Source of the DNA: Eledone cirrhosa
Lineage: Eukaryota
Direction: 5' to 3'
Assembly: GCA_964016885.1 (NCBI GenBank)
Contig: OZ024741.1
Coordinates: forward strand, 82,336,001-82,400,000
DNA: 64,000 nucleotides
Positions 19,749 to 55,827 of this stretch are shown here, in pieces (the first letter of the stretch is position 1; each line of letters starts with the position of its first letter). Both the position numbers and the translations under genes were made by a program. The notes under the pieces were generated by a model, which searched no databases, was not told where the DNA came from, and worked only from the letters and a program-made list of their open reading frames with translations.

Positions 19749-19960
19749 ATATATATATATATATATATATATATATATATATATATATATATATATATAT
19801 ATATATATATATATATATATATATATGTATATATATATATATATATGTGTGTGTTTATATGTGTGTACATTTATTTACAATATCGGTTTCAGCATTATAG
19901 CATTGTCAATTGCGGATATGCAGAATATTGTTAAGTTGCATATTTGTACAAATAGTGATA

Positions 19961-20209
19961 ATAATAATTATTATTTCTACTTTTGGCACAAGGCCGGCAA
20001 ATATCCCAGTGCATTACTGGCAAAGGGCTGTAACTCTTTTCTGCAAATCATGGCTTCCGACACTCTACCGATATTGCTAATCCACCGCCCTTAATAAGTA
20101 ATAATAATTGTTTCTACTTTTGGCACAAGGCCAGCAAATAACCCAGTGCATTACTGGTACTTTATTTTATCGACCCCGTAAGGATGAACGGCAAAGTAAA
20201 CCTCGGCAG
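19961..20209 (-). mobile_element. Two partial SINE copies
   Basis: Reverse complement of the SINE 3' end GGCCTTGTGCCAAAAGTAGAAA occurs twice; 5' end at 20090. Confidence 0.8.
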
Positions 20210-21036
20210 GATAATAATACTAATACAAATAAAAAGGTAAGAAAAATTAATTTTCACATACATGTTTATTCAGAGAAGGGAGTTCATTTCTCCATCCATC
20301 CTTCTCTGTTAATAGCTTGGTTGTGACTGGTAGTAGTTGGGGGAGAAGGGGAACGAGAGGGGAGAAGAAGGAGAAGAAGGAGGAGGAGGTGGCAGGGGAT
20401 AGTTGTGGTGGCAGGCTGCTTTGCGAGACCCTTTGAATAGTGGATGCAAGGTCTAGCTGGCATGGGTTTGAAAGGCTGGGTGACATTAGAATGAACCGGG
20501 GAGGGGGAGTGATTGCTTCTAAAAAATCTATCTTGGTATTTTTTCTTAGAAGAAGTCATCAACATTCACCTTGTTTTTTTGCCACAAAGAAGATTAAGAG
20601 TTATTGGGATACTAATTCCATCCCTAGCAGCATTTTCATGGTTGGGAGTTGATTGTTTCTAAAAACATCTTTCTTGGTATTTTTTCTTAGAAGAATCATC
20701 AACATTAACCTTATTTTTCTGCCACAAAGAAGATTCAGTGTTATTGAAATGCTAATTCCTTCCCTAGCAGAAATTCCAGATTTAGGGGAACGGAGAAAAT
20801 TCTACAACTTTCCTCTTCCCTCCTTCTCCTTCCCTCTCCTCCTCCTTCTCCCCTAACTACTACCAGTCACAACCAAGCTATTAACAGAGAAGGATGGACA
20901 GAGAAATGAAGTCTCTTCTCTGAATGAACATGTATGTGAAAATTAATTTTTCTTACCCTTTTTATTTTTATTTTTATTATTATTATTATTATCACTATTT
21001 GTACAAATAAGCAACTTAACAATATTCTGCATATCC

Positions 21037-21074
21037 GCAATTGACAATGCATATAATGCTGAAACCGGTATTGT
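21037..21074 (+). ncRNA. Minimal hammerhead ribozyme, U3-A8 core
   Basis: gcaa TTGACAA t gcat ata atgc t GAAA ccgg TA ttgt, then AATAAA. Mirror copy at 19877-19913 (-). Confidence 0.72.
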
Positions 21075-22315
21075 AAATAAATTAATGTTTTGATATTTCA
21101 CTGAAAAAAATCTCTTCAACGTTTTCTACTGAAAAAATATTTTTCTTTTCTACTATTTGTTTATATATATATATTGTTTACTAGTAGTTTGAGTGTAGAT
21201 GCAGTGTTCATCAGTTTAGTTCGTTCTCTCTGACAATGTTAGCATTAACAAAAAAACATTGTAAATGAAAGGTTGCCGCCAATGGAAGAGCTACGTTTTA
21301 CAGAACTGCGGTGAGAATGAATTCAGCATCTTTTTTCTAAGTTCTTCTTGCTAGCATGACAATAAAATAAAACCTTTCTACGTGTGTGGTTGTTGGGAAT
21401 TGAAATCTTTGGATTCTGTGCCGTTTAAAAATTTCTCGTGTGTTTAAAAATTTCCCATTTTATCTTTACTTTCCGACTGGGATGATGGTTGGTCTCGTTA
21501 GAAACATAAGAAAATATTCTGACCAAAGAAACCTCTGCGTGTGCGAAACGCAGAGTGTTCCCCATAGCCTAACCCCCTCCGTTTTCGGAAGAAAAAGTCG
21601 ATAGCAAGTTTGGTGGAGGTCAGAGGGTTTGAAAACACTCGAAAAGCGCAGGGTAAAAAAGACAATTTCTCTGAGAGTGCTTTTCTATAAATGTAACGTC
21701 TTTTCCTTCCAGGTAATACTTAGATTTCACCTTTCAAAGATAATCGGTAATATAATGATTTCTAAACTTAACACAGCTTCTGAAAATTGGTGTATAGAAA
21801 ATTCGATTATATAAAACCAGTATCTTACTGATATTTTATCTTAACGACCTCAGAAGGATATAAGCAAATTTGATCACGGCGGGATTTGAACTAATCTAAA
21901 GAGCATGAACAACTTCCGCAAAGCATTTTACCGACGCTCAAATGATTCTGCCAACCCACGACGCTGGTCATGCATAATATAATAACTAACTTTTGTAGAT
22001 TCGTCTTCTGTAGAATAACCAAACTATTTCTACTAGTAACTGATGAAATTTGCCATTTATGAGATAAGAAGAATTTACGATGTCTCCAGAATGTCAAAAA
22101 ATGTAAATATAGATAAGAAGAATTAATACAGTACGCAAGATTCTCTTTGCTAATGACCTACTGCTATATTCACGATGCCTTTCTCTCTCACTCTCAACCA
22201 AAAATGGTTCGAAAGTTCAGTTTATTTTTACCACCATCCATCAACATTTGTATCAAGCTGATTTAACATTTAAGTAATTATTGATTCTTGTAAAGAATAA
22301 TTTTAACAATTGAAC

Positions 22316-22441
22316 ATCTATCTATCTATCTATCTATCTATCTATCTATCTATCTATCTATCTATCTATCTATCTATATATATATCTATCTATCTATCTA
22401 TCTATCTATCTATCTATCTATCTATCTATATATTTATCTAT
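22316..22441. repeat. (TATC)n microsatellite
   Basis: Read directly; 5' flank of Tx1 family B. Confidence 0.95.
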
Positions 22442-53068: not shown

Positions 53069-53139
53069 TATATATATATATATATATATATATATATATA
53101 TATATATATATATATATATATATACATATATAATATAAT

Positions 53140-53812
53140 ATAAGTTAACACAATGAAATAAAAAATCAAGTCATCACTGCTTTACGATCGATTCTAGCTG
53201 ATGATAATACATTGTAGCTATACTCAGTAATTGATCTATGTACGGTTATTTACAAATTATCAAATAAAGAGAATATTTTCTTAAATGCATATCACCAGCT
53301 GTTTTCAAAAGCAATAATAATTTTATTCAATATTGATTTTATTCATAATTAGTAGTATGTTCGTATCATGTCCTTATTTCGTGGTGGTTGAAGAACTAAC
53401 GATTCAAATTGTTTTTTCATATGGTGTTAAGATGAAAAGTAATATACTTTAGTTGGAGTCATGAACCTTTGAAAGGAATGGTTGAAGGGTGTTAATAGTG
53501 GATTTGGCATAAAAATCTATTAGGAGGAAAGGGATTGTCAAACTGATAGTTGAATGTATCTGGTATAGTGAATTTAAAAGGAATGTCAAAATAAATGGTG
53601 ATTAGTGTTGTATTGAGTTTTAAGGTGAATATAAATTAAAGTTATGGCTAGGAAATATAGTATATTAAAAGATGAACATTATAATAAGATAAAGAAATAC
53701 AGTAATGCGATAATATACAACTTAAGCAACACAATATAGTACTGTGTGGTAAATTGCATTTAGTATAATATATCATATGATACGCTGTAAAATACTATCA
53801 AGTACGTTAATG
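53140..53812 (-). mobile_element. 3' non-coding end of another Penelope-like family
   Basis: Homologous to the 36980 palindrome; carries an HHR; its 3' end abuts (TA)n. The 5' boundary is uncertain. Confidence 0.6.
53176..53315 (-). ncRNA. Hammerhead ribozyme, U3-A8 core, about 105-nt stem II
   Basis: attgctt TTGAAAA c agctggtgat...atcatcagct a GAAT cgatcg TA aagcagt. The homolog at 37105 has GAAA. Confidence 0.7.
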
Positions 53813-53814
53813 CA

Positions 53815-53975
53815 TAAATAATTGTTTCTACTTTAGGCACAAGGCCAGCAATTAACCAGTCCAGTGCATTACTGGTACTTTTATTTTATCGACCCCGTAA
53901 GGATGAAAGGCAAAGTCAACCTCGGCGGGATTTGAACTCAGATGGTAAAGGGACGTAACTATGCTGCCAATCCAC
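53815..53975 (-). mobile_element. SINE copy (2203 family)
   Basis: Reverse complement of B-box, core and 3' end. Confidence 0.8.
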
Positions 53976-54326
53976 AATGAAACTCAGATAAATACATGTT
54001 GGCATAGTTAAAATACATACATTTTATAGATTACAAAGTGCATATATCCACACTAGCCCTAGAAACCCTCCTCCCTCATAAAACGAACGTTATAGTAAGC
54101 CATACCTATAACCGATCACGCGGCGACCTCGTTGAAGTCGGATATAATAGAATAGATAATCGCACTAAAGATCACGACCCCGGCGACGGTGACCACTTGA
54201 AAATTACTCGAACTATTTCCCTACTAGAAAACCAACAAAGGCGACGGCCTACTACCAACGCCTTCCAACCAACATCTTCCTGTACATAAACATGGAAGAA
54301 AGAAGAAGAGTAAACTCGAGCATAAA

Positions 54327-55827
54327 GTGAAAGGGGCACCTAACGGGCTACAACGCATTAACATACATAAGAGCGGACACCTAGATGGAACCACCTGTAG
54401 CAAACGTACAAGGACACGTAATCGCCACCGTAACGTCCTATGGTTACACCCCCCCCCCTACTCTCGGAGTGTGGTCTCCAACATACCTCGGATATTCTTC
54501 GAAGCCTTAGAGAAGAATTTCCCGCCCAACCATAGGTATAGAAAAATTCTTAATAGGAACAATATAAAAATATCCTTCTCTACTACACCTAACCTAGCAG
54601 ACATCATAGGAACAACGAACCACAGTAAGATCACCAAGACACAACACCTTAGCACAGACGTACCTACACCTGACAGTAACTATATCGGCCTTAACAACTC
54701 TCTAGCAGCATCCAATAGTGCTGGCAACGGCCTCCGCAGACGCAACCAGCATAACCGCGAAATGACTGGGGAACATGCAGGACGTGACGTGCGGAATAAC
54801 AATCGCTCCACCCCGCGTGCTGTCGGTTGTAATGGTGCTAACAACAGCTGCGGGAGCGTAGGTAACAACGTAGGCAGCAACAATGAGAGCCTTACCGTGG
54901 GAAATAGATCGAACTGCGACAGAAGTTGCAACTGCCGCGACAGAGGACGCTGCCCCCTTACAGGATACTGCTTGACTGATAGGGTTATATATAGATGCAC
55001 TGTAACTAGCCACAATAGCGTTAAACATTATATAGGGGCTACCTCCGGTCCGTTCAAAATTAGGTTTCGAACACATCTCCACACTTTCACAAATAAAAAA
55101 ACTAAGACACTCCACTTCGCTCGCGGACTACATCACATCACTAAAGGACTTAAACATCAGCCTCTCCACGCACTGGGATATCGTCGGCAGGGCTGCACCG
55201 TACAACTTCAAGTGGAAGTGCGATCTTTGCCTCGTGGAGCTCGACCACATCATAACTGGGCCCCACGAGCTCATCAACAGCAGAGCTTAAACAGGGATTA
55301 GTTGTACACATCGCTTAAAAATATCCTTCTTTAGATGGGTTAAGGATGAGCAGTGAAACAGTGCACCGGATCTCACTGCAACAAGTTTTAACACCCCGGC
55401 GGGCAGGCGCTGCAAACTAACACCCAGGAAACTAACCCTGCATAACAGACCCAGCCTCAAACGCCCCAGACAAACAGGTGCGGAAAAACAAACGTCTCAA
55501 AATAAGCGTTGGTTACATGACCCTGTGCGTATCGACAATGGTAAGGTTGTAACCTCATCTTGTAACGGATAAAAATTTGTCCGGGAAAGGCTGCCCTAAC
55601 ACCGGCCAGAGTTACCTCTGTTGACCTGCTGCAAAATCAAAACAAGCTATTTTTGAGAGCAATGAACCTTGACTTGAATTTAACCCCCAATCTCTTTCCG
55701 AGCAATGTAAGAAACGCTTTTGGTTATTTCTGCCCTTGAGAAGCCCAGCTGGGCGAAACGTACGTAGGTGGTGTTTTAAATAAACATGTTTTAACGCTCT
55801 ATTCTCCGATTTCTTACTTTTCCACGT
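54327..55827 (+). mobile_element. Penelope-like element (Naiad-type), 5'-truncated
   Basis: ORF 54327..55301: HKSGHLD, RNVLWLHPPPYS, KILNRNNIKISFS, CNCRDRGRCPLTGYC, VIY...YIGAT.GPFKIRF..H (GIY-YIG). 3' HHR, AATAAA and (TA)n. Confidence 0.9.
55731..55771 (+). ncRNA. Minimal hammerhead ribozyme, U3-A8 core
   Basis: tgccc TTGAGAA gccc agct gggc GAAA cgtacg TA ggtgg. Confidence 0.78.

Follow-up and report, generated by a model that had tools for sequence, protein, structure and literature searches.

Hammerhead motifs with the core TTGANAA, in which a U3–A8 pair takes the place of the usual C3–G8 pair, were noticed in 64,000 nucleotides of Eledone cirrhosa DNA (assembly GCA_964016885.1, contig OZ024741.1, positions 82,336,001–82,400,000; this whole stretch is referred to as the window). 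They raise the question of whether the swap is decay of canonical hammerheads or a maintained variant, which elements carry it and whether RNAs with this core might cut themselves. U3–A8 is a family trait of the 3' hammerhead motifs of Penelope-like elements (PLEs) and not decayed C3–G8, and positions 3 and 8 change together, both across families and inside one alignable repeat lineage. Judged from sequence, the motifs appear to be 3'-terminal minimal type-I hammerheads of PLEs that would cleave weakly, as dimers and probably with the help of protein, in tandem transcripts of active elements, most copies being inert (probability roughly 0.72). They have likely been kept by selection as weak self-cleaving RNAs.

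A first-pass annotation, made from the letters of the window, had placed full hammerhead topology at five sites and decayed versions at three others. Of these eight sites, seven are hammerhead motifs from the 3' ends of five PLE families, A to E (Table 1; sites are named by the first core nucleotide and strand). The whole minimal type-I anatomy, namely stem I, TTGANAA, stem II, GAAA, palindromic stem III, GTA and stem I, is present at 21041+ and 46273-, whereas 19909- and 55736+ are imperfect: the palindrome of the former is broken by G16.2 to A, and stem I of the latter has two direct pairs, or four to five with one bulged C. The strict scan described below overlooked 55736+ because its stem I is weak and needs this bulge. 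The copy placed at 53176 has lost A15.1 and cannot be called full, since its stem II spans ~100 nt and GAAT replaces GAAA; most other family C copies read GAAAC. Among the supposedly decayed versions, those at 51093 and 37628 (51098+ and 37672-) are indeed decayed copies of U3–A8 families, with cores TTGAAAA and TTGATAA, respectively. The site at 41975 was rejected as a hammerhead, as it has no GAAA–stem III–UH segment and folds as a single hairpin with TTGAT paired with ATTAA; 20 fetched loci are 99–100% identical over this stretch, so that it is not a decayed motif either, and a paralogous repeat unit reads TTGATATT. The surrounding sequence (window 41600–42500) is a young repeat with internal duplications of ~245 bp, tandem units of ~1 kb and more than 1,000 first-look candidates in the genome.

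Table 1. Hammerhead motifs and associated features in the window, with the details that define each.
Feature	Position	Strand	Details
Family A hammerhead motif	55731..55771	+	Core TTGAGAA 55736-55742; stem II GCCCA/TGGGC; GAAA; palindrome CGTACG; predicted cut after GTA (55766); stem I weak
Family A PLE, Hydra-clade-like, 5'-truncated, frameshifted	54074..55828	+	Linker CxCx5C and GIY-YIG-type endonuclease 54450-55353; hammerhead in 3' untranslated region; ends at (TA)n
Family A hammerhead motif	46239..46277	-	Core 46273-46267, within ~300-bp 3' fragment (about 46018-46314)
Family B hammerhead motif	21037..21074	+	Core TTGACAA 21041-21047; stem II GCAT/ATGC closed by U-U; palindrome CCGG; GTA; stem I GCAA/TTGT
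Family B inverted partner copy	19877..19913	-	Core 19909-19903; G16.2 to A
Family C hammerhead motif	53178..53313	-	Core TTGAAAA 53308-53302; ~100-nt hairpin stem II; perfect stem I TGCTT/AAGCA; A15.1 to U in window copy
Family D decayed copy	51093..51131	+	TTTAAAA, GAGA; family form TTGAAAA, GCAG/CTGC, CCGG, GTA
Family E decayed copy	37628..37678	-	A6 to C, G16.2 to A (TTGCTAA, CCGA); family form core TTGATAA, stem II GATG/CATC, position 17 A or U
Hairpin in young tandem repeat	41975..42022	-	Imperfect; not a hammerhead, left out of the finding

Scanned with a strict type-I descriptor that allowed any base at positions 3 and 8, the window gave two U3–A8 matches, 21041+ and 46273-, against none in each of 60 local dinucleotide shuffles, in addition to one canonical motif at 47783. 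An Rfam scan of the window gave no hammerhead among the 150 matches listed of 172, and the segment 46215–46305 gave no match at E ≤ 10; because the canonical minimal motif at 47783 was missed in the same way, these misses do not discriminate and are uninformative.

Whether U3–A8 is the state of the families or of damaged copies was read from samples in which positions 3, 7 and 8 were left free, the first-listed rows being read by eye unless scripted. The downstream part of family A, from stem II to stem I, has 1,317 exact copies genome-wide; in a scripted reading, 26 of the first 30 were U3–A8 and none was C3–G8. Among the 188 copies of A subfamilies with a 5-nt loop II, the first 100 comprised 94 U3–A8, five C3–A8 and one U3–U8, so few C3–A8 rows that an 'intermediate' subfamily was rejected; position 7 and loop II were variable across these rows, with many variants of the loop. 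Family D (11,381 exact copies) showed U3–A8 in 99 of the first 100 and family C (742 exact copies of its 5' part) in 98 of the first 100. TTGANAA was found in 25/30 loci of family B and TTGATAA in 23/29 anchored loci of family E (30 fetched), both samples having been fetched by homology and thus biased towards the query. In all sampled family copies with free positions (A, C, D and repeat R, described below) C3–G8 was absent, as it was from the fetched B and E samples, and the family majorities are U3–A8; the outcome that the first-pass annotation had named as refuting, CTGANGA in family consensus sequences, thus did not appear. The family forms of A to E agree with the hammerhead core N3-U4-G5-A6-N7-N8-A9, G12-A13-A14-A15.1 and U16.1-H17, and the core damage seen at C, D and E belongs to the window copies. 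Stems I and II and a palindromic stem III that would permit dimers are present, with a weak stem I (two direct pairs) in A, B' and E; stems I–III covary, with unconstrained variation at position 7 and in loop II.

The scale of the variant was estimated with the pattern core-N11–18-GAAAC-N2–4-GTA on both strands, with the reversed pattern as control. U3–A8 gave 26,073 matches versus 1,294 in the control and C3–G8 gave 49,636 versus 261, and the mixed classes remained rare: 1,244 versus 504 for U3–G8 and 1,261 versus 513 for C3–A8, the recurring rows among the first 100 of each being, by inspection, mostly single-base mutants of big families. Other bases at position 17 contributed a further 7,426 U3–A8 matches (control 1,720), including some overlapping double counts, and C3–G8 with A, C or U at 17 amounted to 80,939 (control 784). 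Above control, about 30,500 U3–A8 matches stand beside about 80,200 C3–G8 matches, a share of roughly 28%, so that canonical motifs still prevail by about 2.6 to 1; ~24,800 of the excess U3–A8 matches end in GTA. These counts involve no pairing test, refer to copies rather than events and let long-stem forms such as family C escape. When the motifs were grouped into clusters of at least two (n = 37), the 3–8 pair was CG in 19, UA in 11 and other in seven, the last being poorly structured by inspection. Since CUGANGA excludes them by construction, ~30,000 U3–A8 motifs lie outside searches based on it, and the large overlooked population of putative ribozymes that had been anticipated in the first pass is thus real as a set of motifs. 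Such a descriptor loses about a quarter of minimal hammerhead matches, including a PLE family with more than 11,000 copies, and surveys of PLEs and retrozymes should permit both U3–A8 and a long stem II. In the whole genome, about 110,000 minimal-hammerhead pattern matches were counted.

Each of the five window families could be tied, at one locus or more, to a PLE reverse transcriptase (RT) or endonuclease frame on the same strand, which extends the earlier count of at least three separate families to at least five. The expectation that one motif closes a GIY-YIG Penelope-like open reading frame held for 55736, which lies downstream of a frameshifted PLE endonuclease region; this family A frame was assigned through homology and motifs, and Pfam gave no match to it at E ≤ 0.01. 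Longer family A copies (loci L121 and L125) contain the RT together with DKT, CxCx5C, CxxC-E and N-CxH. In family C, a Hydra-like RT and endonuclease lie upstream in L187 and L188, with the motif ~1.2 kb downstream of the frame; the linker and (TA)n target are present, and DKT and the C-terminal CxH were not recovered. An intron (GTAAGT...CTAAC...TAG) within the long stem II of this family was considered and disfavoured, as GTAAG and CTTAC lie in complementary stretches of a long-hairpin fold. Family D has a Neptune-like RT–GIY-YIG frame upstream in L192 (Pfam E 5.5e-07 and 8.3e-07), whose CX4CxxC linker resembles, compared by eye, that of Neptune1_Nv in Fig. S2 of PMC8557442; the linker and two cysteines were seen, and one histidine of the CCHH finger is missing in the L192 copy. 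In L333 and L341 the family B motif is preceded, on its own strand, by a Neptune-like endonuclease, the linkage running via L333, L341/L398 and L408; a tie to the endonucleases of L200 or L229 was discarded, these being different elements. For family E, a Neptune-like endonuclease alone lies upstream in L376/L397, an assignment that rests on one locus. The B, B' and E frames are ~45–55% identical to that of family D. The carriers are accordingly labelled, from sequence, Hydra-clade-like (A, C) and Neptune-like (B, D, E), where 'Neptune-like' refers to a tree without a named Neptune reference and the Hydra side to homologues with RWK rather than published references; the nearest named homologues are from Octopus and Argonauta. 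The families are thus unrelated at the clade level, as first proposed, but B, D and E are relatives of one another, and A and C may be as well. Inverted pairs are common in all families, and a partial tandem occurs in L121 and L122.

Canonical families occur in both groups: G, I and J on the Hydra-like side, and the family of L406 and window 47783 on the Neptune-like side. The latter appears in the window as an inverted pair of a Neptune-like PLE 3' end (47547–47935; 194-nt arms, 98%) with canonical hammerheads at 47783+ and 47699-; this family is probably young, with many near-identical full-length copies and open frames of ~775 aa. A Hydra-like PLE with a broken frame (51357–52404) has at its 3' end a canonical CTGAAGA core with a stem II region of ~90 nt (window 52906–53015, +), and similar long-stem canonical motifs (38–96 nt), which standard descriptors would overlook, were also seen in L228, L121, L190, L194 and L346. 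Loci L257–L286 hold a Hydra-like family with many intact frames of ~745 aa and a canonical hammerhead with extended stem II ~1.3 kb downstream. A Neptune-like family with long open frames (L288, L295, L301, L305, L402 and L403) has a degenerate U3–A8/U17 motif, almost without stem I, 1.2–1.9 kb past the frame and behind a microsatellite-rich 3' untranslated region (UTR). Further U3–A8 families with C17 and the palindromes CAATTG or CACGTG were found in L211, L212, L217, L218 and L215, those of L211 and L215 having many genome copies. Decayed hammerhead-like motifs with a canonical core lie at window 19449 (-), 58681 (+), 46791 (+) and 13056 (-); those at 19449 and 58681 match families present in fetched loci.

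How often the swap arose was addressed with trees of translated pieces of single natural, broken copies, built with a quick LG+G4 method. Families A and C join in the Hydra-like tree with weak support (53); one row of 99 aa was excluded from the Neptune-like tree. The combined tree, made from rows of at least 370 aa, two shorter outgroup rows and eight homologues, requires two changes for eight U3–A8 versus seven C3–G8 rows, and a single U3–A8 clade was rejected by the approximately unbiased test (p-AU 1.7e-08). Including the Neptune-like family N289, with a degenerate U3–A8/U17 motif 1.2–1.9 kb downstream, raises the count to three changes. A single origin inside the Neptune-like group was not rejected (p-AU 0.136).

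An independent view of the swap comes from repeat R, which lies outside the window. Its tandem units of 316 bp each contain a type-I hammerhead with a U3–A8 core, C17 and a 5-bp palindromic stem III (Rfam HH9 match at E 1.7e-05, under the gathering score). Units of 316 bp occur in L207 (3977–5557, -) and L209, and of 320 bp in L047 (G000:C1:6519946 onward). Among 1,175 copies, 97 of the first 100 are U3–A8 and none is C3–G8. Homologues in L186, L005 and L199, which are 75–78% identical across about 240 nt, carry C3–G8. Stems II and III of the repeat show compensatory changes. Of 14 hand-picked tandem-repeat-type motifs in an alignment, 11 have UA and three have CG as the 3–8 pair, and two-sided changes occur at 11/15 pairs; 89.3% of cells are paired compared with 71.5% after shuffling and 28–43% in slid controls, and two-sided changes number 50 compared with 16.9, a shuffle comparison inflated by kinship among the sequences. 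The covariation of positions 3 and 8 that the first-pass annotation had proposed to test is found in this set, with mixed classes also rare genome-wide. Repeat R looks like a non-LTR (long terminal repeat) retrozyme lineage with a switched core pair. As one clade is rejected and the homologues of R carry both cores, the swap likely arose at least three times, three origins being the simplest reading. The change counts carry no direction, and C3–G8 is taken as ancestral because it is the usual core in print.

The U3–A8 motif lies in the 3' UTR downstream of RT–endonuclease frames, and copies end at (TA)n, as seen in A, B, C and D. In a tandem, pseudo-LTR (pLTR) transcript of such an element, two motifs would pair via the palindromic stem III and each would cut after GUA. 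The swap would have occurred at least three times (in Hydra-like PLEs, Neptune-like PLEs and the retrozyme-like repeat), each time by two transitions and probably via a U3–G8 wobble; a PLE motif with U3–G8 is listed for Saccoglossus in the supplement of PMC4209133. Cutting is expected to be slow and probably to need the protein of the element, because U3 can pair with A17 and so lengthen stem I; position 17 is A in window families A–D and A or U in E. A count of canonical G17 motifs, intended to show whether 3–17 pairing is avoided, is uninformative, since most of the matches listed come from a single family whose longer stem III was parsed wrongly. Most genomic copies, those of the window included, would be inert, as lone or inverted fragments. 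Pairing between positions 3 and 17 reportedly modulates the effect of 3–8 swaps, a point attributed to Nelson and Uhlenbeck in 2008.

This reading draws support from cofolding, which predicts a dimeric hammerhead for D, 46273 and R, and from published precedent. Natural U3–A8 core variants are stated to be active in vitro (PMC3088659), minimal PLE hammerheads have a short palindromic stem III and cleave weakly as dimers (PMC4209133), and the anole PLE hammerhead is protein-assisted (PMC11167929). Several points weigh against it. The predicted monomer and dimer folds are not hammerheads for B, 55736 and the decayed E copy, the folds predicted for A (46273), C and D pair U3 with A17, and stem I has just two direct pairs in most A, B' and E copies. 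Furthermore, PLE insertion in vitro did not depend on hammerhead cleavage (PMC11167929); in one type III hammerhead only the G–C swap rescued, other double mutants having low activity (PMC9901934); and the analogous C3–G17 pair slows minimal hammerheads at least 300-fold (PMC3884650). In addition, copy counts are not independent events, and the trees are quick ones from broken copies, the combined tree carrying a long-branch warning.

The strongest alternative is that the PLE motifs keep their fold without meaningful cutting, with U3–A17 locking stem I, and serve as a binding or dimerization signal for the RT–endonuclease. We regard this as unlikely. The A17 of the window families, the predominance of GTA ends among excess U3–A8 matches and the U3–A17 pairs of the predicted folds are all in keeping with it, as are the dispensability of cleavage noted above and the lack of RNA-seq ends at the anole PLE cut site in the data described in PMC11167929. 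However, A8 is coupled to U3, and G5, A6, A9 and G12–A14 are fixed across families that are ~50% identical in protein; a locked fold would need no 3–8 pair. Moreover, some U3–A8 families have C17 or U17, and A17 is the commonest base in canonical motifs too (49,636/80,939), so that its frequency needs no special cause. A bolder form of the weak-cleavage reading, in which U3–A8 plus A17 makes the ribozyme of autonomous elements self-damped through a U3–A17 trap released only by the element's protein, the retrozyme, which would have to cut well, keeping C17, is quite unlikely; it also supposes three or more switches of the core pair from C–G to U–A, spread over two deep PLE clades and the retrozyme. 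If true, the 3–8–17 triad would be a natural dial for cleavage rate, and matched C–G and U–A sisters would permit the role of PLE hammerheads to be tested.

A further alternative, which is very unlikely, holds that U3–A8 had a single origin and that template switching or swapping of 3' ends then carried it among the PLE clades and tandem repeats. The common (TA)n targets and the frequent nesting or adjacency of the elements offer chances for such exchange, one Neptune-like origin was not rejected, and A and C group in the combined tree; yet on inspection A, C, D/B/E and R have no evident sequence in common in their stems and flanks beyond the core, and the C3–G8 homologues of R point to a change inside its own lineage. 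Independent decay of canonical hammerheads, or chance matching in AT-rich DNA, is scarcely credible: mutations in several window copies and the chance match at 41975 speak for it, but the twenty-fold excess of U3–A8 over the reversed pattern, the single-change classes U3–G8 and C3–A8 being about 30 times rarer after controls, and the absence of C3–G8 from the sampled copies refute it except at that site.

The swap was already a known variant, as the first-pass annotation had stated, having been reported in Schistosoma PLEs with ~1,300 hits (Cervera and De la Peña, 2014; PMC4209133), where it came to light for just the reason given in that annotation, and among natural hammerheads (Perreault et al., 2011; PMC3088659). 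As in the Cercyon PLEs of Schistosoma mansoni described in PMC4209133, the motifs are of minimal type I in terminal repeats, with U3–A8 and a palindromic 15.2–16.2 region, and occur mostly as lone copies and inverted pairs; unlike there, ~30,000 matches, at least five window families and a palindromic stem III insert of 2–4 nt are found here. A17 is dominant here, whereas the two U3–A8 rows in the supplement of that paper appear to end in U and G, some columns being missing. The Hydra-clade PLEs of PMC8557442 share with A and C the C-terminal endonuclease, CxCx5C linker and (TA)n targets, and with A also DKT, CxxC, CxH and a tandem spacing of ~2.9 kb, with no CCHH. In contrast, the Hydra families in File S2 of that paper, a table that lists canonical motifs only, have CTGANGA in all 25 (26 rows), whereas A and C have U3–A8 and C a stem II of ~100 nt. 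Family D resembles Neptune-clade PLEs in its RT, C-terminal GIY-YIG domain and CX4CxxC linker; among Neptune-like elements, D, B, B' and E carry U3–A8 and L406 of the same genome C3–G8.

Repeat R is similar to non-LTR retrozymes (PMC7229834; bioRxiv 10.64898/2026.07.22.740005) in its tandem units within the 170–400-bp range, each with a type-I hammerhead; it differs in its U3–A8 core, the accessible text of PMC7229834 making no mention of C3U, U3–A8 or covariation. The same compensatory pair is stated to be active in vitro for the natural variants of PMC3088659, where it is described as rare, with several examples, and here it makes up about a quarter of all pattern matches. In the literature searched, PMC4209133 was the only paper with the U3–A8 term, and none described the pair in Hydra-clade PLEs or retrozymes, a weak negative as several key papers were beyond reach. 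A large U3–A8 PLE population was thus already reported in 2014, and the present one is a larger example of a known variant; because the swap was known, the result widens host range and scale and adds no new RNA class. What is added is the scale, the occurrence in two PLE clades, a retrozyme-like carrier that has matched C–G relatives, the long-stem forms and the U3–A17 question. Matched U–A and C–G relatives in one genome provide natural covariation for the 3–8 tertiary pair and suggest that PLE hammerheads are under selection for the catalytic fold.

Other repeats of the window were also noted. A near-perfect, GC-rich hairpin of ~110 nt lies between (TA)n runs at 19552–19663 and may be a small inverted-repeat element. 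What we take to be a remnant of a Mariner/Tc1-like transposase with inverted ends (55918–56900) is inserted in the (TA)n that directly follows the family A element. Broken non-LTR retrotransposons with RT frames occupy 3099–7472, 22773–28010, 28456–33212, 9297–11863 and 48322–50318, some with an upstream gag-like frame, these labels being taken from the translations alone.

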